IMG/VR virus record: IMGVR_UViG_3300010043_000004
Location: 1-47,265 of that record
Source of the DNA: a virus
Taxonomy: Duplodnaviria > Caudoviricetes
Length of the DNA: 47,265 bases
Direction: 5' to 3' (one strand)
A model generated the notes under the pieces. The model was not told the DNA's origin, did not search any database, and was given only the letters and a program-made list of their open reading frames with translations. Positions 2,313 through 33,200 of this stretch are shown here, piece after piece. The position numbers were made by a program, and so were the translations under genes. How positions within the stretch are numbered: the first letter of the stretch is position 1; each line of letters starts with the position of its first letter.

Positions 2313-2720
2313 TTAGCGGATAGTCAACCGTCCGGCCAGCTGTGGCGGGTCTGGTACTACGGTCACTTTCAGCCGCATGAAATTGACTACTAACCCAGAC
2401 GGCGAGCTGTACTGTCTATCAGGAAAAGTGATCGTGCCCAGCGGGTGGAAGGCGTCCTCTTCATTGAGGTCTGAGCCTTGCACTTCTACTTCACCCTCGG
2501 TAGCATCTTCCGGCCAAAGCACTGTGGCAATGAAGCCTCTGACACCGTGGTTCTCTACGGCTGGTGCTAAACAGACTGCTCTAGATTTCGTGCCGACACT
2601 GACGGTTTCAGCTACGAATTTTGAGTGTGCTACGCCGATTTTAGTGCCAAACATGTACTCTGGCGTCGTAGACATCGCTTGCGGTACGTTATCAGCCGGA
2701 TTCAAGCCGTAAACTGGCAT
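2313..2720 (-). CDS. Putative head decoration/virion protein, paralogue of 33495..34532
   Basis: Sits between scaffold and MCP; shares MPxY...TPxYxFG N-terminus and NFxRLxx...LAxRLxIR C-terminus with 33495..34532. Confidence 0.6.
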   Translation of the reverse strand: MPVYGLNPADNVPQAMSTTPEYMFGTKIGVAHSKFVAETVSVGTKSRAVCLAPAVENHGVRGFIATVLWPEDATEGEVEVQGSDLNEEDAFHPLGTITFPDRQYSSPSGLVVNFMRLKVTVVPDPPQLAGRLTIR

Positions 2721-3956
2721 CTAGGCCTTCTTCCAAGTCACATAACGGCCTTTGTACGGCCCAGTTGCCATCATGGCTTTACCGCTGATATAGCCAGTCA
2801 TCCAACCCGGACGTTTCTCAATTTCTGTCATAGATGGCTTTTTCATGAGCTGAACTATGCCGTTTGAATTCGGTTTTGCTGGAGCTGCGGCTACTAAGCT
2901 TGCTGCCTTGGCAGCTTTTGTGGGTGCACCGTAAAGATCTTGCACCGCACGCTTTGAAATCTCTGGAATGATGCTGTCGAGGTGAGCTTTTATGTAGACT
3001 TTAGTTCCACGGGCATCTTTCCGAGCAAGGAATGCACGTACCTGACGTTGGTAGCCCTCATCTTGAGTGAGATTGTCAAAAACATCCTGATGCACTGTGT
3101 TAGTCAGCCGCTGTCTGGCTTGTTCTGAAATCTTCATGCCTTTCAAATACGGCATGAGCGATTTTTCTACACTTCTCTGCTGATAATCATAGGTTTCTTT
3201 GCCAATTTCACCGCGAAAGAGCTTTTCTTCCTGCTGTTTGAGCTGATTCTCTCTTTCAGCCAGCTTGTCCTGCTGCGGGTTGAGCTGTTGCTGGCCGTTT
3301 TGCTCTGAGGTCTGCTTCTGCTGACCGATCCAGGCATAGATATTGCGGAGCAGTGCCTGTGCAGCTTCTGGGTTCTGGTTCTTGATGGCATCAAAAGCTT
3401 CACTCAGCCTGTCGGCAAGCTGTGCTCTCTCTAAAAAGCCGTAGAAGTGTGGTTGAACCTGCTGAGAGAAGCCATTAGGATCCATCTTGGCGAACTGCCG
3501 CATGGCATACGGCATGACCTGCTGAAAGCCTTGCGGGTAGTCTCTAGCCCAGTCATCAACAATGCTGGAATCACCAGCCTCAGCAGCTTGTTCTAAGTAT
3601 TCAGACGCTTGTACCTGCTCTCTAAGAGTAGCAATGCCGTCCACGCCGCCAACAGTATCAAGGGCAATCCGAGCCGCCTGTGCTTCTCTGGCAGTCGGAA
3701 AATGCTTAACCAAGTCGTTGTAGCTAAAATAAGCCTTGCGGAGTAGATCAGCTTCCTTAGGGTTAGTTTCTCTAAGCCTAGCAAGCGCATTCTTGACTTC
3801 TTTCAGCCCGAGTGACTGATCTTCTGCGGTCGGCTCTGGCTTTTCAGCAGGCTGCTCTGGCTCAACAGTTTCTACTGGTGCAATTTCTGAAGCAGTGTCT
3901 TCAGCTGATACTTCTTCTATCGGTTCTGCTACATCTACTGCGCCTACATCATCCAT
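2721..3956 (-). CDS. Capsid scaffolding protein
   Basis: Acidic N-terminus, helical Q-rich body and basic C-terminus; between portal and MCP. Confidence 0.7.
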   Translation of the reverse strand: MDDVGAVDVAEPIEEVSAEDTASEIAPVETVEPEQPAEKPEPTAEDQSLGLKEVKNALARLRETNPKEADLLRKAYFSYNDLVKHFPTAREAQAARIALDTVGGVDGIATLREQVQASEYLEQAAEAGDSSIVDDWARDYPQGFQQVMPYAMRQFAKMDPNGFSQQVQPHFYGFLERAQLADRLSEAFDAIKNQNPEAAQALLRNIYAWIGQQKQTSEQNGQQQLNPQQDKLAERENQLKQQEEKLFRGEIGKETYDYQQRSVEKSLMPYLKGMKISEQARQRLTNTVHQDVFDNLTQDEGYQRQVRAFLARKDARGTKVYIKAHLDSIIPEISKRAVQDLYGAPTKAAKAASLVAAAPAKPNSNGIVQLMKKPSMTEIEKRPGWMTGYISGKAMMATGPYKGRYVTWKKA

Positions 3957-8817: not shown

Positions 8818-8869
8818 GAAAAGATGTGTCTATTCAAGTTCTCTCACAATGGTGTCTTTGATGGGCTTG

Positions 8870-8896
8870 AAACCCCGGCTGCCAAGCTGGGGTTTT
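8870..8896 (-). terminator. Hairpin directly after the terL stop
   Basis: AAACCCCAGCT-TGGC-AGCCGGGGTTT; weak U tail. Confidence 0.4.
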
Positions 8897-10451
8897 AATT
8901 TACCAGCCGTTGAGCCCATGACGGCAAGGTCTTTTCCTTTATCTGTATTGAGTGCATGTCATGCATCTTCTTGTACAGCCAGAAGAATCTCTCTTCTTTG
9001 TCTTCAATTGCCAGCGCTTCTTCTCTGAGTCTGACTTCTTCCGGCTTGAAGCTTGAGCCGCACATGAACACCAAACCCATGCTTGCGCCGTCGTATGCGT
9101 CGTCGCCAATGCCGTTTTCACTGAAGTCTACTTTTCTGATGGCTTCAGTATTGTCCGGATCTCTTACCAGGGTTGGCAGCTGCTCAATCAATTTGGGGCA
9201 GTCCTCGCAGATTTGCCAATGTCCGCTGTCCAGCATCTGAGCCGTCAATCTGGCACGGCTGATTCTTGAGCCGGGTGAGCTGTCTGACGGGAAAGCTTTA
9301 GGGATGCCGGGAGAGAGAGAATCATTGATCAGCGTCATGATGCTCTTCGGCGTCTTGCGGCTGCTTCTAGGGCTTTGCCGCCCAGCATCCCAGCTGAAGG
9401 GAAATGCTACCCATCTTTCGCCTTCGGCTTTCTGAGAGATTCTCTTGGCTAGTTCATCTTCTCCGACATGGCGGCCATACATTTCGCCCCACGTATAGAC
9501 TCTCTTGTTCTCATCTATGGCGTGACAATAAACCGCATGGGGATGATCATAGCCCCAATCACCGCTCAGCCAACGGCGGTACCACGGTTTCAATCTTTTG
9601 TGCAGTTCTTCTTTAGTAATGACGTGTCTGGTTTTAGAGAACTGGGGGAAATATTGACCAACGAATATATCCCAGCTCCCGAACAGCCATGCATCTCTAA
9701 GATGGGGGTCAGTGATTGATGCAAGCTTGAGCCCGTACTCACTTTGCAGAAAATACTCTCTTCTCTCGTCATCCGACCAGCTGTAGTAAGTAGCCGTTGA
9801 GATGTGATCTCTTTTGAGTTCATGCCTGACCCACTCGATGTTGTCCCAGCTGTAAGCTTGCACGAAGCCCCAGCGTTTTCTCTTCTCTGCGGCTTCAAAT
9901 CGTCTCTCAACAAAAACTCGTTTCAAATAAGTCAAGCCTTTTGGTGGCAAGCCAGCTTCTGAAAAACCCGGCATGAACGTGAAGACCATCTTAGGCTTAA
10001 GGTCTGAGTTAGTGCAGCGGTTAGAGCCGCTGAGCCGCTCTAACTCACTCTGAGAAAAATCTTGAGCTTCATCAATCAGAATGTCCGCGAACTCCGCCGA
10101 ATAAAACTGTGACATGTCTGCGTCGTGTTCTGCACTGCCCATGAAGAGCTTGCTGCCACCAGGCAAGCGGAGTTCTTTGTGAGATTCCCGCCACATACTC
10201 TGCAAGAAAGGAAATTCTTCAAACATCTTGACTATGTGAGATTTGTAAAGGTCCGTGTAAGTGCGTCTCAGAATCAAGCCGTTGGTATTCTCATACTTCA
10301 GCCGCCGCATGAGCATACATCTTCTACCACCGCCGCTTTTAGAGCCACCACGAGCCCCACCAAAGCCGATGTTACTCGTCAGCTCGTCGTCCCACAGCTC
10401 CCAAAGCATCGCTTGCTTGGGCTGTAGGCTGATTTTCAGATCCTGATGCAA
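8895..10451 (-). CDS. terL: Terminase large subunit
   Basis: Walker A GGARGGSKS, LILRRTY, Walker B ILIDEAQ, nuclease motifs DWGY and DDAYDG. Confidence 0.95.
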   Translation of the reverse strand: MHQDLKISLQPKQAMLWELWDDELTSNIGFGGARGGSKSGGGRRCMLMRRLKYENTNGLILRRTYTDLYKSHIVKMFEEFPFLQSMWRESHKELRLPGGSKLFMGSAEHDADMSQFYSAEFADILIDEAQDFSQSELERLSGSNRCTNSDLKPKMVFTFMPGFSEAGLPPKGLTYLKRVFVERRFEAAEKRKRWGFVQAYSWDNIEWVRHELKRDHISTATYYSWSDDERREYFLQSEYGLKLASITDPHLRDAWLFGSWDIFVGQYFPQFSKTRHVITKEELHKRLKPWYRRWLSGDWGYDHPHAVYCHAIDENKRVYTWGEMYGRHVGEDELAKRISQKAEGERWVAFPFSWDAGRQSPRSSRKTPKSIMTLINDSLSPGIPKAFPSDSSPGSRISRARLTAQMLDSGHWQICEDCPKLIEQLPTLVRDPDNTEAIRKVDFSENGIGDDAYDGASMGLVFMCGSSFKPEEVRLREEALAIEDKEERFFWLYKKMHDMHSIQIKEKTLPSWAQRLVN

Positions 10452-10818
10452 GCTGTCGGTTTTCTTGTATTACTTCGGCTTGAAGTTCTTGCAGCCTTCT
10501 CGGTTCTTGCCCGATGTACTCGATGACCAACTTGAAAGGCTTCTCTTGCTCGACGTTGACCTTCTGATCTGGCATTCCGTACGCTCTATTAGCCAGAGCG
10601 GTGAAAGTCTTGGGGTCGCCTTTCTTGGCGGACTCCGTGAGAGACTGATAAATCTCATCAAGGTTGCCAACAAACACGGCATGCGCCAGCTCAGCCGCCC
10701 AGTCTCTTCTATCGCGAAACAGCTCCGGGTGCTTGGCTCTGGTTTCCAGATAGCTTCTGGCAAGCTTCTGCCCATCTACTTTTTTGCGTCTCAGTTTTGG
10801 CACTACACAAAACTCCAA
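10372..10818 (-). CDS. terS: Terminase small subunit
   Basis: Immediately upstream of terL; AKKGD...LANRAYGMPDQKV pattern typical of TerS. Confidence 0.75.
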   Translation of the reverse strand: MEFCVVPKLRRKKVDGQKLARSYLETRAKHPELFRDRRDWAAELAHAVFVGNLDEIYQSLTESAKKGDPKTFTALANRAYGMPDQKVNVEQEKPFKLVIEYIGQEPRRLQELQAEVIQENRQLASGSENQPTAQASDALGAVGRRADE

Positions 10819-11072
10819 TGAAATTTAGCGTACTTTCTCTGCGGGTTAGGGTCTTGAAATCTCAGCCCCGGCAGTTCGGTTGGCGGCAGCTGACTGAGCT
10901 GAGCAGTAGGCTTTGGCCCGAAGTGCCCCAGCTCGATGCCAATGAATTTGCCATCCGCATAGACTTCTCTAGCTCTCTTTGCTTGCAGCAGCTTTATGGC
11001 TTCTCTGGTAAGGATGACTAGGCAAGTGTTGACTACATGAATGCGGTTCGGGAGGTTTGGCAGATGCGACAC
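10803..11072 (-). CDS. Hypothetical protein, first gene of the late operon
   Basis: Overlaps the start of terS. Confidence 0.5.
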   Translation of the reverse strand: MSHLPNLPNRIHVVNTCLVILTREAIKLLQAKRAREVYADGKFIGIELGHFGPKPTAQLSQLPPTELPGLRFQDPNPQRKYAKFHWSFV

Positions 11073-11281
11073 AGCAAGAAAGGGGCTACTTCACTTGAGG
11101 TGAGTGACACCAGCTCAGAGAGCTTCAGAGAATAGAGCCGGACAGCAAGCAAGTTTTACCGCTTTCCCCCTGACGGCTTTAAAAATGAGTGCAGTCCGGC
11201 TTGCTCACGCCTTCCGACCAGATTTGATGCTATCACTACTTGTCAAGCAGTGTTAAAATTTAATGCTCAGAATTGAAATCC

Positions 11282-11590
11282 GCAGGCTCTTTCTAAACCA
11301 ACACTAGACAACTGCAAAATTGAAGTTCGGCAAGGCGGCAATCTGGGCTTGCTTGACATTCATGGTACAAAGGACGTGCTGGCACAGATCGATGCAAGCC
11401 CCCAAAGCTTGGAAACTGAGCTAGTACAGCAAGGGGTCTTAGGCGTACCCCTTACATGCAAGCGCCTAGAGCGCATGGGCTTACCTATGCAAAACGGCTG
11501 GGAACTTCTCGGTCTCAGCAAGACTTTGAGAGGATCGAACTTAAAGTCGCAGAGGAGCTTGGGTTTCGCTAAGCCTAAGCTCCTTCTTTC
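11282..11590 (+). ncRNA. Putative large structured RNA (multiple hairpins, H-type pseudoknot, terminal terminator-like hairpin)
   Basis: Seven or more contiguous helices whose non-Watson-Crick pairs are G-U on the + strand; extended -10 TGtTAAAAT at 11251-11259. Confidence 0.7.
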
Positions 11591-11605
11591 AAAGGAGAAA
11601 AAGCC

Positions 11606-11893
11606 ATGACTGCTGAAGAGACTGCCAGGATGGCGGATTTGATCGAGAGAAATGCTCTCTTGAGCGGCACGCTGCTGAGAAAATCTGAAGAGAGAACTGA
11701 CAAGCTGATCGAGCTGCAAATGAAGCTCAGAAAGCTTGAAGATCAGCACTGCTATTGCATGAATGAGCTGAAGAAAGCTGAGGCCATGAAGAAGCAGGCC
11801 GTTGAGCTGCTGCGCGACATCTTGGATTGCCTGGACCCAATGAGCGAACAGCACGAAGCTGCGAAGAAGTGGCTGAAGGATGCAGGATCGTGA
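11606..11893 (+). CDS. Coiled-coil hypothetical protein
   Basis: AAAGGAGAAA SD then ATG. Confidence 0.75.
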   Translation: MTAEETARMADLIERNALLSGTLLRKSEERTDKLIELQMKLRKLEDQHCYCMNELKKAEAMKKQAVELLRDILDCLDPMSEQHEAAKKWLKDAGS

Positions 11894-12186
11894 TCAACCC
11901 TAGAACTATCACGCTCGATGAAGTCAAACAGGAACTCGATCTAGCCAGGAAGCAGTGCGAGGAAGCCTCGAGGATTCACCGCGTGGCCGAAGCGACGATT
12001 GACCGTCTGGAGAAGGAACGGGACGGATACAAGAAGTCAGCCCTTGAATTCGCCGAACATGCTACGAGGCTTGAGAAAGAGCGCGATGAATTGAAATCCG
12101 CGATTCGGCACATGGGCGAAATGGCGGAGGTGAGCACATACATGCCGTTGATAACCAGGGCGGCCGAGCTGCTGCCGCTCTGCTGA
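11890..12186 (+). CDS. Coiled-coil hypothetical protein
   Basis: GTGA overlap with the previous gene; LEKERD repeats. Confidence 0.65.
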   Translation: MINPRTITLDEVKQELDLARKQCEEASRIHRVAEATIDRLEKERDGYKKSALEFAEHATRLEKERDELKSAIRHMGEMAEVSTYMPLITRAAELLPLC

Positions 12187-12276
12187 AGACGGCAGTACTT
12201 GGCACGAAGATGACCCCTATCATGCATTGTGGGTAGAGAAGCGCAACGAATGGCTGAAGAATGCAGGGTTTAACAA

Positions 12277-12495
12277 GTGAAACAGCCAAACGATCTGTTC
12301 CTGCGAAAGCTCTGCGAAGCTGTAATCGAGTCGAAGCATCGGAACGTAGCAGAGCATTTGATGAATGGGCTTCTGTGGGCGTCCTATCCTGAGTGGTACG
12401 AATGGTACATAAAGTTGCCAAAGGAGCGGCTGGATCGCGGGTGCAGCAAGCGGTCAAAGGCCGAATTGCGCGATATGCTGGAGAAGCTGAAATGA
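12277..12495 (+). CDS. Hypothetical protein
   Basis: ORF coupled to the next gene (ATGA). Confidence 0.5.
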   Translation: MKQPNDLFLRKLCEAVIESKHRNVAEHLMNGLLWASYPEWYEWYIKLPKERLDRGCSKRSKAELRDMLEKLK

Positions 12496-12689
12496 CGAAG
12501 ATCTGGGAAGTGAATGAAGAGACGCTGAAGCGCATGGAGAAGGCTGAAAAAGAACGTGAGCAGTTGGAGCAACAAGTCTTCCATTTGAAGCAACTGCTCG
12601 ATCATTACCGGGAACGCGAGAAGCATGCCGCCGAACTGCTGCGCGACGAGAACTCAACCGGCGAATCTTGGATTGTGCAGCGCGACTAG
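12492..12689 (+). CDS. Coiled-coil hypothetical protein (MTKIWEVNEE...)
   Basis: GGAG SD; ATGA overlap. Confidence 0.6.
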   Translation: MTKIWEVNEETLKRMEKAEKEREQLEQQVFHLKQLLDHYREREKHAAELLRDENSTGESWIVQRD

Positions 12690-12824
12690 TGGTTCCGAGA
12701 TGCGGGGGCGGAGCTGCAATGACTTGCCACTTTGAAGGCCCGCAGCTGATTATCTGCTACGTGCAGCAGCTAAAGCTTGTCCGCAAACCAGTGCTGAAGA
12801 AGCCTACAAAGAAAAAGAAAGTGC

Positions 12825-13139
12825 ATGATCAAGCTCAAAAGCAAAGTGAATTGGAAGAAAGTCGGTCAGTTTCTCGGCGGTGACTGCTATCAGTGGGGCG
12901 ATGTGAAAGTCATTGTCAACAAAGAAATGGGCTTGTGGCACTTGAGCATCTCACTGAGCTATCGCTACCCTACTTGGGATGAAATCTACACTGCTTGGTA
13001 TGACTTGATCCCAGATGCCCAGAGCATTCGTGGTGCATTGATCTTGCCACCAAAGACGGAATACGTGAATGTGCATGCCAACTGCTTTCACATTCACCAG
13101 CTGCAAGATGCTGAACTGCCTGCTACACTAGTGCTGTAA
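12825..13139 (+). CDS. Conserved phage protein of the WxHxSxS...PTWDE...PPKxEYVNxHxNCxH family
   Basis: WHLSISLSYRYPTWDEI...LPPKTEYVNVHANCFHI. Confidence 0.8.
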   Translation: MIKLKSKVNWKKVGQFLGGDCYQWGDVKVIVNKEMGLWHLSISLSYRYPTWDEIYTAWYDLIPDAQSIRGALILPPKTEYVNVHANCFHIHQLQDAELPATLVL

Positions 13140-13766
13140 AAAGAGAGAGCTAGACATAAAACCAGAAAAATCTTAATAGGCTGCTGACACCCTTTTTTCA
13201 TGCCTAGAATCAACTGCTTGAAGAGCAAGAGAATCCTATGCCCAAAATTAGGCTTGAAAGCCACGCGTCCACGTGGTGGGTCCTCCCTACCGTCCGGGTA
13301 TCGGGGGCCCTGCATCTGGCTGAAAACAAACCGCCGCCCGCCTAAGCTGCTGAAAACAACGAACAACTCCGCAGCTGAAAGTGACAACCGGTGTAACACT
13401 GCTGCACAGCAGCTGCAGAACCCTGTTGTGATTTCTGGTACAAAGCACAACACAGTGCAAACAATCAGCTTGCAGCCTGCTTTTGATTTCACTGTGATTT
13501 CAGCTTGCAGCAAACCGTCTAGGATCACGTAGGAACCTGCCCTGATCTTTTCCGATGCTCAGCCACAGCTGAGAGCCAGGAAGCTGCCCAGCAGCAAAAG
13601 CGAGCTGTAAACACTCGCCTTGATAACCACTTCAATCATCTTCTACAGCATCATTACAGCACAGCTTGCAGCACTCAGAGCATTTAGTTTTATGTCTGTG
13701 TCAAACCTGACACTGTGCAAAACTGGCTTACAATGATGATTCTACAGCACTAATAAATTTGAGATA
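13140..13766. other. Non-coding region of about 630 bp; candidate genome terminus/packaging site
   Basis: No credible gene; GC-rich core 13261-13315; repeats GCTGAAAACAA x2, CAGCTTGCAGC x3, TGTGATTTC x2; lies just before the strong early promoters. Confidence 0.4.
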
Positions 13767-13770
13767 GTGC

Positions 13771-14537: not shown

Positions 14538-14606
14538 CTGTGAAGCTTTGAAGAGTGAGCTGCTGAGCAGCCTGCTCTTGAAAGATCACACTCAAAGGAG
14601 AAAGCA

Positions 14607-15771: not shown

Positions 15772-15827
15772 CTCACAGCTGAGCTGGGCAGCTGCAAAGC
15801 TGCTCAGCTCTCACAAAGGAGAAAGCA

Positions 15828-16479: not shown

Positions 16480-16537
16480 GCAGAAGAAACCGCTGTTTGA
16501 GCAAGCTCTCAGCTATCAAGAGTCACTCACAAAATCA

Positions 16538-16566
16538 GGGCTGCCGCGCAAGCGGTAGCCTTTTCT
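16538..16566 (+). terminator. Intrinsic terminator
   Basis: GGGCTGCCGC-GCAA-GCGGTAGCCT followed by TTTCT. Confidence 0.7.
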
Positions 16567-18331: not shown

Positions 18332-18436
18332 CGGCGCATAGCTTGCTGGGCTGCTTCAATCAGCTCAGCAAGCTGATGCCGTAGCCCGACGATACCACGC
18401 AGATTGATGAGAAGAAACATACAAAAGGAGAAACGA

Positions 18437-19410: not shown

Positions 19411-20310
19411 CTACCATAACGGCAGCTGCTCTTGTGGTTTTCTGCCATTTCTGCTGTTTCCGCCATTTCCGGCTGCGGCCGCTAGTGCTGCAAACTCCGT
19501 ACCGAGCAGCTTCATGCCGAAATTGTTCACTTCTGGCCGCAGCTCTACATCTGGCTTGAGCTTCAGTGGGTTCTTGCGAAAAGAATCATAGTTGACATGA
19601 TGCTGATAGCGGCCCCACTTCCAGCTGATGTATGTGACATCGGGGTGCTTCTCTTGCAGCTCAGCCGCCATCTTGTAGCGGCCATCTCCTTGATAGTGCG
19701 GCGTCATGCCGCCTTGCACCGACATGGTTGGCAGCTTCTTTATCAGAAACGCATTGAATAGGACCGTGCAGAAGCCCGCCTTCAGTACTCGTAGGCAAAG
19801 ATCCGTGTCATCGTTGTAGAAGCCTTCATTTCTGAAGCCCGATTTAGTGTCGATCAGCATGTTGCTATAGACTCTGCGATTCGGCAGAAACGGCGGTATC
19901 TTCTGCTTTCTCTTGGCAAAGAATTCATAGTTCATGCCAGCAATGACGATGTTTTCATAGCGGTCTACAAACTTCTCAATTGCATACAGCACTGTGCCGT
20001 CAGCCACTCTCACTTTTTGATTCTGATTGAGACGGTAGATGTCTGAGATGTTGTCATCAAACGTCCAGTACCGCTTGCAGCTTTGCTGCTCAGCAAAGTC
20101 CCAGATGTAGTTGCGGGTAACTACTAAGCCTTTGTTCTGATGCGGCAAGATGTGCAGTCTCTCAACTGGCACTACTCTCGCGTAATTGTCAAATTCTTGC
20201 TGCTCTACAAAGGCTGTGTAGGGAATCCGCAGAGCTTCAAACATCTTGATAGTGAAGCGCGTCTCCCATCGGCCTTTCGTTGGCACGTACACTGGGTACT
20301 GCGGATTCAT
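19411..20310 (-). CDS. GREB1-related/TET-associated (TAGT) glycosyltransferase, predicted DNA base glycosylation
   Basis: YPVYVPTKGR, TRNYIWD, WTFDDNI, RVYSNMLI, YNDDTDLCLRVLKAG, GGMT, LQEKHPD, RYQHHVNY. Confidence 0.85.
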   Translation of the reverse strand: MNPQYPVYVPTKGRWETRFTIKMFEALRIPYTAFVEQQEFDNYARVVPVERLHILPHQNKGLVVTRNYIWDFAEQQSCKRYWTFDDNISDIYRLNQNQKVRVADGTVLYAIEKFVDRYENIVIAGMNYEFFAKRKQKIPPFLPNRRVYSNMLIDTKSGFRNEGFYNDDTDLCLRVLKAGFCTVLFNAFLIKKLPTMSVQGGMTPHYQGDGRYKMAAELQEKHPDVTYISWKWGRYQHHVNYDSFRKNPLKLKPDVELRPEVNNFGMKLLGTEFAALAAAAGNGGNSRNGRKPQEQLPLW

Positions 20311-21097
20311 CTTGTAAGCACCAGTATTGCGGACGGTTATTCCAGAAGTTAGTTTTGAGTTGAACATAGCCGAGTTTCTGCATCACTCGGCTAAACACTC
20401 TGCCGATATTTCTCGGCAGCACTGGGTAGGCATGATGAAAGTAGCAATCGAAGTGGCCGACAGCTTTAGCCGTGAATGAATTAGCAATAAAGAAATGTCG
20501 TGGCTGGCAGTAGCTGATAATTTTGAGCAGATGCTCAACTGGCTCTTCAAAGTGCTCAAAGTACTCTGAAGCAAACATCACATCTACGGTTGGCGGCAGA
20601 GTTTCAAGTGTGTAGAGTGCATGAAACTTGTATTCATCAGCCAGCAGCTCTGCAAACCGCGCTTGAAAGCTGTCTTTCAAGTCAGAGTAATAGCAAGCAG
20701 CATTAGGGTACAGCTGAGCAAATGCGGCGGTTGTGTAGCCAAGCCCGGCTCCGAGATCGAGCACCGTTCTCGGCTCTGGCATCACGGTCTGCATGTTCTT
20801 AATGTGCTTGCGCGAGTAGCACACAAAGCAAGCTAGCAGCTCTGCCAGATATTCTTGCTCCGTGTAGACTGAATAATCCGGCATGTTATGGTCAAACTTC
20901 AGAGATGCATACCACCTATTCATCAGCAGCTCGCTTTGAGAAGTTCCAAGCCGCTTCTCTTTTGAAGCTCTCAGATGCTTGATGGTCTGCACTGCCGTAT
21001 AGCTTAAGTGCTTAACTTCAATCGAGCTGTCTACTCTCCAGCATCGCTTAATGTAGTCATCCAGCAGTTCATTAAACTTCACAGTGAGCAAATTCAT
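20237..21097 (-). CDS. Class I SAM-dependent methyltransferase
   Basis: VLDLGAGLG, FASEYFEHF.EP. Confidence 0.85.
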   Translation of the reverse strand: MNLLTVKFNELLDDYIKRCWRVDSSIEVKHLSYTAVQTIKHLRASKEKRLGTSQSELLMNRWYASLKFDHNMPDYSVYTEQEYLAELLACFVCYSRKHIKNMQTVMPEPRTVLDLGAGLGYTTAAFAQLYPNAACYYSDLKDSFQARFAELLADEYKFHALYTLETLPPTVDVMFASEYFEHFEEPVEHLLKIISYCQPRHFFIANSFTAKAVGHFDCYFHHAYPVLPRNIGRVFSRVMQKLGYVQLKTNFWNNRPQYWCLQDESAVPSVRANERPMGDALHYQDV

Positions 21098-21219
21098 AGT
21101 ACCTTCCATCTCTGGACAGGGGCAGATGTGGATTAGCAACAGTTCCACTGCTGTTGCTATCTGCCCTCTCAAAGCGCATCAGCATTCAGCCCTTCGTGCT
21201 TTGAATTGTCCAGAGAAGT

Positions 21220-25841: not shown

Positions 25842-26026
25842 TGAAATCACTTTGCAGGGGAAAGCGAAAAGTGATTTCAGAAATCAAAATGCTTTGTTTT
25901 CAGTAGCCAATACGCCCTTATATTCCCCTGCATTCCACTGCGTTCCCTTGCATTCCAACTTGTTGTGCTTTTGAGTACTGATCACACCGTGCTGATTCCA
26001 AAGCAGTTGCCTGCTCTGGAATCAGC
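25842..26026. other. Candidate attP region
   Basis: Intergenic, just downstream of the integrase; 10-bp periodic repeats ATTCCCCTGC/ATTCCACTGC/GTTCCCTTGC/ATTCCAACT (25922-25960); flanked by inverted repeats GAAATCACTTT/AAAGTGATTTC and GCTGATTCCA/TGGAATCAGC. Confidence 0.55.
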
Positions 26027-28963: not shown

Positions 28964-29509
28964 CTATCTCTTAGTTAAATTGACTTGCATGTCACTCACT
29001 GCATTAATGTAGTGCTTGACATGAAAGTACTGCACGTCTTGCGTCTTCAAAGCAGTCTCCGGGTCAAGTGAGTAGCCATAGCTGAATTCAAAGTCACACG
29101 TTCCTAAGTAGTGCGTCAGCTTGTTTGCTTCTCGCCATCCTTTGTCAAAGTACAAGAAGCTGCTCTCGGCCACTGGAGGCCACATATGCATTGGGTCTTG
29201 AATAGCTCGCGGAGAAGACCAGTAGGGCACGATAATGGTCATCTTGCCTTTGGGGATCAAGATCCGGTAGCACTCATCCATGAACGGAATCCGCTGCGGC
29301 CCAGCAATGTGCTCAAAGAAGTGAGAGCAGAATATTTCTTCAACTGAGCAGTCTGCCCACGGCCACGGAAACTGCGTCAAATCAACTTTCTCATCAGCTG
29401 CGGCAAACAAATCAACACCCCTGAAGCCTTCTTTCTTGTTCTCACCACAGCCTAAGTCAAGCTTCAGTAGTTGCTTCTTGTCAACTTCAGGCTCTAGAAC
29501 AGTAACCAT
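28964..29509 (-). CDS. SAM-dependent methyltransferase (Methyltransf_11-like)
   Basis: KLDLGCG, VDL...PWP, SHFFEHI, ECYRILIPKG, DPMH. Confidence 0.9.
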   Translation of the reverse strand: MVTVLEPEVDKKQLLKLDLGCGENKKEGFRGVDLFAAADEKVDLTQFPWPWADCSVEEIFCSHFFEHIAGPQRIPFMDECYRILIPKGKMTIIVPYWSSPRAIQDPMHMWPPVAESSFLYFDKGWREANKLTHYLGTCDFEFSYGYSLDPETALKTQDVQYFHVKHYINAVSDMQVNLTKR

Positions 29510-30220: not shown

Positions 30221-33200
30221 ATCACTGGAACCCTCATCATAGTAGCGGAAGTGCCGATTATCTGAGAAGCAGTAACAGCAGGCGGAAGACTGTTAACATT
30301 CGTAATGCAGCCCCAAAATGGGATCCTCTGGTTAGTTGAATTAGTGACTGCGCCCAGTTCACCAGCATTAACGCCGCTCATCATGCCTTCATGGACGACA
30401 GCATTTGGTGTGCACACTGAGGTCCAGTTTCCTACAGTTGACAGGCAGAATGCCGCCCAATAATCACGGTCATCAAACTGTGCAGTGATTGGAATCTTAA
30501 GATTTTTAAGATAGTTGTAGTTTGCTAAGTTTGACTGAGCTGTGATTGATATTGTGTATTGAGTTGATGAAGATGAAAGCCGCGTGAGCGTTGAGCCTGT
30601 ACGGCTGTAAAAACCGAGTGACATGCTGACATAGCCGCTGACTGAAGCAGCTCCAGAGAAATTAGCCGCAAATGACATGTGAGACATCATGCCTGCTGCT
30701 GTATAGTGGCCGGGAAACATTTTGTTCAGCGGCCAAACTACACATGAAAAAGCTGCTGTCGGCGACATCTCAGACCAAGTTGTGTAAGCTTTGACGATTG
30801 GGCCAGCTTCACACAAATAGCGGTTAGCACTGTCACCGCCTCCTCCGCCCCCTGATGCACTACCGCCAGCATTCCAGAATGATGATTGCGTTACCCAGTT
30901 GCCAGCTGTGTTCCATGCACCTGATGAAGCAGTCCAGTTGTTCGCAGTATTCCAGTTCCCAGAGGAAGCTGTCCAGCTGCCCATTGTGCTCTGAGCATTC
31001 CATGCACTAGAAGATGCTGACCAGTTGCCTGCTGTGTTCCAATTAGCTGAAGAGTTGAGCCATCCAGACCATGAAGTGAGCTGTGAAGTATAAGGAGCTG
31101 AAATAGTGAAAAGTGAGTTTGAAGCATTCTGACCTGATGTGATCAGAGCACCTCCGCTCTGAATCAGTGATACGCCAAGAGTACTTCCACCAGCCGCAGC
31201 ATTCCAAGCTGCACTTGATGCTGACCAGTTGCCTGCTGTGTTCCAGCTAGACGATGAATTAAGCCAGCCTGACCATGAAGTGAGCTGAGTTGTATTCGGA
31301 GCGGAAATAGTAAACAGAGAGTTTGAAGCATTTTGCCCTGATGTGATGCCGACTCCAACACTCTGAATGAGAGACACACCTAAAGCACTGCCGCCCGCAG
31401 CTGCATTCCAAGCAGCAGAGGAAGCCGTCCAATTTCCCCAGGAGACTAATTGAGATGTAGCTGGTGCTGAGATTGTGAATGTTGAGCCGCCTGTATTGGC
31501 TACGGATGCAATGCTTGCCCCAATTGCAGAGACTAGTGAAACTCGGCCACCGAGAGCAGTGCCAGTCATTTCACTCGTCATCGTGTTCACAATTGATGAG
31601 ATATAGCTTGATATTCCTGAAGTCAACGTTGTCAAGCTCGTAGCATGGCTAGTAATGAAACTGGTCACTACACTGCTATAGGCGGAAGTCTGATTTAATG
31701 CACTGATTGTTGCTGAAAGCCCGCTTGTACCTGAAGACGTTTGCAGAGAAATGTTGGCACCTTGGCTCAGCATCAGTTGATTGGTAACGAGCTGCCCGTT
31801 GATACCAGCCGTGAATCCTCCTGCTGGTGCACCTGAGTCGCCTGGCGGTGCTCCCCAAAAGCTAGCTGTCGTGCCTCCAGGCCCAGTAGCTTGGTTGACT
31901 GTGATGTAGGCATTCATTCCTTGCCCAGACCATGCACCGCCGCCAAGCTCAGTCATCGTGTGCACAACTGATGTGATGTAGCTGCTAATGCCGCTCGTCA
32001 GTGTCGTCAAGCTAGTTGCATAGCTGCTGATAAGGCTAGTGACTATGCTGCTATATGCTGAAGTCTGATTTGATGCACTGAAAGTGACACTCAACCCGCC
32101 AGGGCCAGATGCGGTCTGCAATGACATCAGCGGCCCCTGTGACAACATCAGTTGATTCGTAGCAATCTGGCCGTTTGCACCGCCAGAGAATGTCGGCGGT
32201 GGCTCACCGCCAGCCGCTGCGTTCCATGCAGCACTAGACTGCATCCAATTCGACCAAGAGATAAGCTGGCTCGTGTTCGGAGCTGAAATTGTGAAGACTG
32301 AATTTGTGCCAATTGTTCCAGATGTGATGCCAGCACCGATGCTCTGAACAAGTGACACGCCGCTCATAGTTTCGCCAGATCCGCCTCCACTTCCTTCAGC
32401 TCCCCAGAACTGAGCCGTCGTCCCTATGCTGTTCGTCACCATTGAGACAGTGATGTCATCATTCATGGCTGAATATGACCAAGAATTGCGCGGGCCGTAG
32501 ACTGTTGCTACTGAGCCGTTGTTCTGACTGACAGTGAGATTAGTATTCCCGGCACTCAACTGGAAAGATGAGATGCCTCCTCCGCCACCGCCCGCAGCGG
32601 CATTGATCGTCACTGCACCGTACCCAGCCTGTTGTTGAGATGCCGACAGTGTGACGTTCGAACCAGCGAAGAGCGTAAGGAACGGATCGACAGCAACCAA
32701 GCTAGACCCCTGCGTTGAACCGCCAGCCTGACCTAGCGCCATCAGCCAGCTTGCTGCCCCCCCTCCGCCGCCACCGGCACTGAGGGAGTACACGGGAATG
32801 CCGCCAGTCGTCAAGGTACTAGCTATTGAGATATTGTCGCCGCCGAACAGTATCGGCGGTTGAGCGCGAATCGTAAGTGCTAGTCCTGGACTAGCACCTG
32901 TTGAATAAGTAGCATTGCTGAAATATATCCCACTTCCAGCAGCTAGCTGTAAGTTTCCAGTGCGGAAATTGTTCTGGCCGATGTTGCCCTGCATCGTGCC
33001 GCCTGCCATCCATAGACCAGTACTGTATTGCGTTGCAATGCCAGTGCCTCCGCCACCAGCTGCACCGTTGATAGTTACTATCAGACCGCCCTGAGCATTT
33101 GTATCGGTCTGAAGTGTTATGTTATTGCCCCCATAGAGGAACAGTGAATCATCACTCTGTGTTCCATCAGCTTCTACAGTGAATGATTCACACACACAAC

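Follow-up and report, generated by a model that had tools for sequence, protein, structure and literature searches.

A strand-specific row of predicted RNA hairpins and a pseudoknot between the terminase genes and a small-gene operon of a probable Acidobacteriota phage

CsrB/RsmZ-type sponges are stand-alone RNAs of a few hundred nucleotides in which serial short hairpins repeat a GGA motif in the loop. In toxin-antitoxin systems of type III, the antitoxins ToxI, CptI, and TenpI combine a promoter, H-type pseudoknot RNA units of ~30 nt, a palindrome, and a gene within ~20 bp (PMC3401426, in excerpt). The gene 32 leader of phages T4/T2, which controls the SSB gene, contains a pseudoknot that precedes an unstructured A+U-rich tract (PMC3014915, in excerpt). 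At terminase loci, the cabRNA of staphylococcal phages is cut from within the terS-terL coding region (PMC10686824, in excerpt), and 14 structured-RNA candidates of at most 151 nt have been placed upstream of putative large terminase genes (PMC10690425, in excerpt). Lastly, in IsrB, which like IscB goes with an omega-RNA/HEARO, the PLMP domain stabilises the base of the terminal RNA hairpin and contacts the Shine-Dalgarno sequence (PMC9581776, in excerpt).

Here we analyse an intergenic region of a phage genome that shares features with several of these systems, and that we tentatively read as a multi-site protein-binding platform (a sponge) for one RNA-binding protein, with its own promoter and leaky release at its last hairpin. 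Like CsrB/RsmZ, the region consists of serial short hairpins, and its repeated element also occurs near mRNA ribosome-binding sites; unlike them, it repeats a stem with a G·U pair and not a loop GGA, is phage-encoded, has no Rfam match, and has a binder that is only hypothetical. As in the gene 32 leader, the 5' leader of a phage gene is predicted to contain a compact pseudoknot with two stems ahead of the ribosome-binding site, but here four hairpins follow the pseudoknot and the gene is unrelated. Proteo-phage-1 (RF03044), ROOL, GOLLD, and the candidates in the excerpt of PMC10690425 are likewise structured phage RNAs of unknown function. The first three differ from our region in that no Rfam model matches it (for Proteo-phage-1, at E up to 1), while the PMC10690425 candidates were compared by size.

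These comparisons bear on a counter-defence role, in which the RNA would serve as an antitoxin mimic or as a substrate decoy for a host RNase, a type III toxin, or an RNA-sensing cyclase. A palindrome (11552-11585) lies between the RNA and the gene at 11606, as in the type III antitoxins, whose promoter, H-type pseudoknot unit of ~30 nt, and gene within ~20 bp also have predicted counterparts here. However, taking tandem near-identical repeats of 31-62 nt as the criterion for such an antitoxin, we found no such repeats, a single pseudoknot, and a downstream ORF that matches no family, toxins included; a ToxN search on the phage was empty, with a control that was silent as well. The element and cabRNA are both structured RNAs encoded by phages at the terminase locus and are similar in size, but the element is intergenic and divergent, lying on the strand opposite to the putative terS and ~450 nt upstream of it, whereas cabRNA lies inside terS-terL. 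We consider a counter-defence decoy quite unlikely, and continue with the sponge as our working reading.

The locus and its promoter elements

The window, by which we mean the whole stretch of DNA analysed, is a record of 47,265 bp that represents a whole phage, with direct terminal repeats and genes for an integrase and a large terminase. Its nearest terminase relatives among cellular genomes sit in Terriglobales assemblies (57% and 52% identity), from which we infer an Acidobacteriota host. The DNA of the region is real; it is identical in one soil sequencing run, possibly the source of the record, and a run from a second study spans 11156-11441 with zero differences. None of the runs listed as containing it is an RNA run, which carries no information on expression. 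The structured region occupies the gap separating two divergent transcription units, the left one comprising the 89-aa ORF, the putative small terminase, and terL, and the right one a small-gene operon:

8895-10451, - strand: large terminase (terL), by family match
10372-10818, - strand: putative small terminase (terS), assigned by its position; identity of 37% to its syntenic counterpart in the closest phage found (L001); no family match
10803-11072, - strand: conserved 89-aa ORF, divergent from the RNA; predicted N-terminal fold weakly PLMP/IF3-N-like; candidate partner protein
11227-11256, - strand: promoter-like mirror image of the + strand element, directed at the 89-aa ORF and the terminase genes
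11251-11259, + strand: extended -10 promoter-like element, from sequence and a motif scan; predicted start near 11265
11592-11597, + strand: Shine-Dalgarno of ORF 11606, the same strong motif as in the phage's other + strand genes
11606-13139, + strand: downstream small-gene operon, with predicted coiled-coil ORFs that are paralogues (two of them interrupted), one ORF of 72 aa, and a DUF7694 gene

The extended -10 that the initial annotation placed just upstream of the RNA is present, but it has no matching -35 and is absent from the sigma-70 scan listing. An imperfect palindrome (11234-11252) is common to the + and - strand promoter elements. A similar mirrored-promoter motif occurs at the syntenic site in L001 and also upstream of terL in L073, with a pattern that was derived from these very sites and for which we estimate about four chance matches in the 3.07 Mb scanned. 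Altogether, the arrangement points with moderate strength to an RNA that may be co-regulated with the packaging genes through the mirrored promoter.

The predicted coiled-coil ORFs downstream form a small family with a C-terminal AAELLR...W(L/F)xDAG motif, which matches no known family; ORF 11606 has no match in Pfam, PHROG, or PADLOC. The window carries three copies (11606-12722, +) and L001 carries four (2581-3671), in the opposite orientation relative to the terminase. Two of the window's copies are interrupted (12687-12691 and ~12175), with one frame change and one in-frame stop, so the module may be decaying. In a contig of run X1, the stop is a different one, one codon later than that of the window, which makes two nonsense alleles at one spot. 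Atlas and viral fold searches with both flanking proteins yielded nothing usable.

Several other features of the genome were recorded. Five near-identical sigma-70 promoters on the + strand (13771, 14244, 15166, 16089, and 17000) are each followed by a short leader and then by the same strong ribosome site, and they have a spacer sequence in common that may be an operator. The long intergenic stretch 13140-13770 contains a number of short words in repeat and, near 13278-13310, a G/C-run motif, and it resembles a terminase cutting region; a similar-looking stretch lies at ~1130-1500 in L001. Palindromes are strongly avoided genome-wide (CTGCAG, 2 against 52 expected; GAGCTC, 0 against 39; also CCGG and GCGC), pointing to restriction pressure from the host. 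A TET-associated-type glycosyltransferase beside a methyltransferase (19411-21172, -) and a second methyltransferase (28964-29509, -) make up a possible DNA or surface modification module, and a 1099-aa ORF with internal repeats of 39-204 nt (30905-32361) is probably a repetitive tail protein.

Strand-specific folding and predicted architecture

The structure that the initial annotation saw on the + strand exceeds chance; the region folds better than shuffled controls on this strand and not on the other. Specifically, hairpins of at least 7 bp number seven on the + strand against two on the - strand, and seven were reached in none of 2000 dinucleotide shuffles. The global fold has a z-score of -2.66 on the + strand (0/100 shuffles) against -0.46 on the - strand, and the local fold of 11402-11590 has -3.92 against -1.25. 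The signal is confined to 11345-11585, the 5' part (11265-11343) being no better than shuffles (z +0.56 and +0.63). Of all 191-nt segments of the genome, on both strands, the one in this region is the richest in hairpins, with six against at most four elsewhere. Ranked by fold z-score, the region comes 8th of 498 genome windows, and a noisier scan of 1258 did not place it among the first 30; related phages also hold windows with five or six such hairpins, at least one of which is apparently coding DNA. As for the G·U wobbles that form on the + strand only, from which selection on RNA had been proposed, their count is partly circular, whereas the strand comparison, which is the fair test, holds. 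Overall, the region is likely a real, undescribed, lineage-specific structured RNA or leader, known from one phage. Its predicted elements are as follows:

11265-11343, + strand: weak 5' domain that does not exceed shuffles; A-rich, irregular hairpin whose loop is predicted to hold tandem G·A
11345-11401, + strand: 8-bp helix (11345-52/11394-401) closing an irregular stem-loop; z -2.83 and -1.94
11406-11422, + strand: hairpin (11406-12/11416-22) of the shared stem type, with G·U at pair 5
11431-11469, + strand: predicted compact H-type pseudoknot; stem 1 of 7 bp, stem 2 of 7-8 bp, loops of 1-2 and 8 nt
11473-11490, + strand: hairpin (11473-79/11484-90) of the shared stem type
11497-11519, + strand: hairpin (11497-503/11513-19) of the shared stem type
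11522-11548, + strand: 9-bp hairpin (11522-30/11540-48) with a diverged shared stem (3/6 consensus pairs)
11552-11590, + strand: final hairpin (11553-66/11571-84) of the shared stem type with a short pyrimidine tail; 15 bp with G11552·U11585; z -4.67

Every helix named in the initial annotation pairs on the + strand as it had said, with the TAGA arm of the first hairpin at 11305-08. The pseudoknot it proposed pairs as well (stem 1, 11431-37/11447-53; stem 2, 11440-46/11462-68), and stem 2 grows to 8 bp through U11439·G11469. The two stems are predicted at ~-10 kcal/mol, and the pseudoknot occupies the only long linker of the region. A helix equal to the pseudoknot's, with its loop, was reached in 186 of 20000 random segments, and the phage genome holds eight looser H-type patterns of 6+6 bp; we regard the pseudoknot as plausible, not proven, and as modest evidence when taken alone. 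Between 11406 and 11585, 120 of 180 nt are paired. In the full-length ensemble, helices 11345 and 11406 are outcompeted (pairing probability ~0.06-0.07), and both form in local folds.

No known family accounts for this structure. Across the whole window, Rfam gave 0 matches at the gathering score (Rfam 15, 4227 models), in agreement with the initial annotation, and 11100-11700 searched at E up to 10 returned two unrelated chance rows only (E 4.7 and 8). The Rfam 15 models presumably include Acido, ROOL, GOLLD, HEARO, and Rsm/Csr. ARAGORN called 0 tRNA or tmRNA genes, two classes to which the initial annotation could not match the RNA either; a tRNA-His-like acceptor with CCA (11345-11404) has neither a T-arm nor an anticodon arm, and a resemblance to a tmRNA resume codon was dismissed in the absence of the tRNA-like domain. 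Retron or DGR RNA was rejected on 0 matches to RVT_1 in the genome (control positive in 3/14), as were antisense targets in the phage genome, where no complement exceeds 11 nt. A recurring four-base word occurs 8 times against 2.6 expected, yet other windows reach 8 too. A literature search of partial coverage found no description of the RNA region or of a stand-alone PLMP protein.

The region is also crossed by an open frame of 86 aa (11349-11609), listed by gene callers, which could itself be the functional element. Consistent with the RNA reading of the initial annotation, this ORF lacks protein-level conservation, since a search of 5.8 billion proteins returned only the ORF itself among four candidates. 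None of 19 matches to its back-translated patterns was confirmed, it belongs to no family, and it would start at a TTG with no Shine-Dalgarno. A coding function is scarcely credible on this evidence. The reverse 164-aa ORF was set aside as well, its only two matches being repetitive artefacts.

Resemblance among stems and hairpins ahead of ribosome sites

The initial annotation described the helices one by one and overlooked the kinship of their stems, the class of the final hairpin, and the mirrored promoter pair. The consensus of the shared stem reads G-C, C-G, two variable pairs, G·U, and G-C, with the G·U in constant register. Compared two at a time, the six stems agree on average at 3.53 of 6 pairs; genome hairpins matched for length score 2.53 +/- 0.26, and 3.53 was reached by 6 of 5000 matched-hairpin sets and by 4 of 5000 pair-order shuffles. 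With a motif defined post hoc, after the data had been seen, four stems within ~170 nt match the consensus, whereas the largest cluster in 180 Markov-simulated genomes is two. Outside the RNA, the motif occurs five times against 2.3-2.6 expected, which is inside the simulated range, and the genome is rich in the triplets that compose it. Two of these five copies (15781 and 18339) belong to the strongest hairpins that lie between genes in the + strand region.

The stem copies differ at both sides of pairs, keep the G·U, and contain no internal non-pairing positions. If the copies are homologous, such double-sided changes are what selection on shape would give, and they would be the sole covariation-like signal. 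The hairpin loops are unrelated to one another, with an intact GGA in only one of them.

A relic of little function could also produce related stems. In that case, tandem hairpin-plus-ribosome-site cassettes would have arisen by duplication and gene loss, and the strand bias would have been inherited from the parent hairpin. The occurrence in one phage only, the related single hairpins at 15781 and 18339, the fold rank of 8/498, and a modular setting with five near-identical promoters and interrupted neighbour genes are all consistent with such a history. However, double-sided changes without internal non-pairing positions are unexpected from neutral decay, a tandem repeat is undetectable (0 rows at score 30), and the pseudoknot fills the one long linker. 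We judge a relic unlikely, and the stem resemblance is counted here in favour of the sponge.

The final hairpin ends 6 nt ahead of the strong Shine-Dalgarno and 20 nt from the start codon; its tail is weak, with no proper U-tract, and a terminator scan does not call it. A hairpin of -21 kcal/mol or better stands just upstream of 4 of 15 + strand ribosome sites, the 11552 hairpin included, and the hairpin-plus-ribosome-site layout is seen again at 15781 and 16537, with a less clear case at 14552, and the shared stem core at 15781 and 18339:

15781-15810, + strand: intergenic hairpin that has this stem core and immediately precedes a ribosome-binding site
16537-16562, + strand: intergenic hairpin that immediately precedes a ribosome-binding site, in the same layout but with a different stem
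18339-18375, + strand: intergenic hairpin with the same stem core

On the sequence evidence, the final hairpin is likely a leaky terminator or a processing or stabilising hairpin, of a class that the phage uses. Strong intergenic hairpins were noted at 14552-14594, 15781-15810, 16537-16562, and 18339-18375 (+), at 8867-8898, and at 25991-26026 (-); several carry GCAA or GCCA tetraloops, and three directly precede ribosome sites.

The layout at the last hairpin also bears on a reading in which the structure is a 5' leader of 11606-13139 that works only in cis, as an attenuator or a translational operator; it would set read-through at the last hairpin or access to the Shine-Dalgarno and leave the free RNA without a job. 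No other clear promoter was seen ahead of this operon, the start codon is 20 nt away, and the tail is too weak for the terminator scan. In addition, a prediction that leaves out the 5' arm of the final hairpin has the Shine-Dalgarno buried by the 3' arm, with an unpaired probability of 0.01-0.25, and in T4 the gene 32 leader pseudoknot nucleates repressor binding (PMC3014915, in excerpt). In the full RNA, however, anti-Shine-Dalgarno pairing has a probability of 0.0 and no antiterminator competes with the last hairpin, the paralogous genes of L001 need no such leader, and the pseudoknot stands ~135 nt from the start codon with structured RNA in between. A leader acting only in cis seems somewhat unlikely to us; of the functions proposed in the initial annotation, a protein decoy and an attenuator remain the two live readings.

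Distribution, the 89-aa neighbour and the proposed function

Searches for homologues covered phages, plasmids, and sampled Acidobacteriota genomes. With blastn, 50,697 phage records gave only short matches (7 records, 6-8% of the query, E 2-5) and 72,556 plasmids gave none. DNA patterns run on IMG/VR found the pseudoknot 0 times and the hairpin motif in 13 stretches, none of which extended past the motif (best 10.6 bits). Neither blastn nor nhmmer detected a homologue in 115 of 117 terminase-relative or neighbour-gene loci, two self copies being excluded. A single-sequence covariance model, which has limited reach for distant homologues, matched only itself in 83 sources including the window and 0 times in 151 sampled genomes of the likely host order, and a DNA search of 401 sampled genomes of an Acidobacteriota class gave 0 matches; these genome searches were run with no positive control. 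Neighbour-gene scans returned the phage of L001 or weak partial matches only. Three hairpin-dense windows of relatives were inspected as possible homologues and showed no likeness.

The closest phage found, L001, has a terL that is 71% identical and the same gene order upstream of terL. Although it retains the 89-aa gene, the putative terS, and four members paralogous to the downstream family, it has no such RNA, and the structured RNA was not found in other terminase-linked loci or in five whole related phage records. By this comparison of sequences, the element is accessory, and this speaks against a role as packaging RNA. The initial annotation had considered a packaging or scaffold role, and a phi29 pRNA-like function of this kind would suit an element that adjoins the terminase operon and is likely under common promoter control. 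Since the element is missing from the closest phage and from the other terminase relatives and terminase-linked loci searched, and the large terminase is ordinary, we hold this role to be extremely unlikely.

The 89-aa ORF has ten relatives and belongs to a conserved family of 65-92 aa that is encoded upstream of the putative small terminase; the N-terminus is predicted to be PLMP/IF3-N-like, and a proline-rich motif at the C-terminus is conserved. The structure model of the 89-aa protein is confident over residues 11-50. IsrB/IscB N-termini fill five of the top six rows of structural matches, with IF3-N further down; the best match (8dmb) is weak, with Z 5.4 and an rmsd of 1.9 over 42 residues. 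The PLMP profile assigns the protein a probability of 1-10%, a score that was reached by 1 of 100 column-shuffled controls, and Pfam and PDB gave no sequence match. The predicted N-terminal fold weakly resembles the PLMP domain of IscB/IsrB. The hairpin plus Shine-Dalgarno that this domain contacts in IsrB is the module that the phage repeats.

Given such a neighbour, the region could be a domesticated OMEGA remnant, that is, a stand-alone omega-RNA-like scaffold with a nuclease-less PLMP protein. Like omega-RNA/HEARO with IscB/IsrB, as far as the excerpt of PMC9581776 describes it, the region is of similar size (~300 nt), pseudoknotted, and ends in a hairpin plus Shine-Dalgarno beside a predicted PLMP-like protein. 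The arms of helix 11345 equal those of a hairpin upstream of an IscB-type gene in L137, and the covariance model gave one weak match at 1 of 14 IscB-type loci (13.6 bits, E 0.012), which is only a lead. However, nhmmer with the 14 IscB-type upstream regions (one from the wrong strand) and their profile found no match, and Rfam has no real match either. The region consists of serial hairpins and a compact pseudoknot, not of a nested multiway scaffold, and no nuclease was found; RRXRR has 0 matches in the phage genome, though its control was equally silent. The position does not fit an omega-RNA, which would lie just upstream of the gene with the PLMP domain and on one strand with it; the structure is on the + strand and the PLMP-like ORF on the - strand, where the fold of the region upstream of the ORF does not exceed shuffles (z -0.26). 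A long-range inverted repeat of 9 bp (11241/11358) was also discarded, since it spans the promoter and clashes with the omega-RNA order. We therefore regard an OMEGA remnant as highly unlikely. RRXRR (IscB/IsrB-type) genes occur in 7 of the 401 sampled Acidobacteriota genomes (L133-L148), most of them with similar conserved upstream regions.

For the sponge, we propose the following course. Transcription from the extended -10 would give an RNA of ~325 nt. In its 3' 190 nt, the predicted fold is a series of hairpins related in sequence, plus one pseudoknot. At the last hairpin, leaky termination or cleavage would yield free RNA together with read-through mRNA for 11606-13139, and the mirrored promoter would place the RNA under common control with the packaging operon. 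The RNA may then titrate a protein that would bind, in addition, the single hairpins ahead of other genes of the phage; more speculatively, this binder could be the divergent 89-aa protein with its predicted PLMP-like fold. Counted in favour are the strand-specific folding, the similarity and clustering of the stems, the hairpin-plus-ribosome-site layout, the mirrored promoter, the unconserved overlapping ORFs, and the PLMP-like neighbour. Counted against are the lack of a homologue, the post-hoc motif, the differing loops, the two outcompeted helices, the weak PLMP match, the presence of the 89-aa gene and four paralogues without the RNA in L001, the interrupted downstream genes, and the self-derived promoter pattern. 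An extended version of the model, in which the locus is a phage ribonucleoprotein switch, is very unlikely in our estimate; there, the mirrored promoter would make the PLMP-like protein in one direction and the titrating hairpin array in the other, tuning translation or stability of hairpin-led genes, as a nuclease-free OMEGA offshoot.

Non-coding RNAs of phages are poorly catalogued, and our literature search found none from Acidobacteriota phages. If the sponge reading is true, an RNA that repeats a stem with a fixed G·U instead of a loop word would widen the range of such RNAs. Should the 89-aa protein prove to be a free PLMP-like domain that binds this RNA, PLMP function would extend outside IscB/IsrB, and the locus would provide a small protein-RNA pair.
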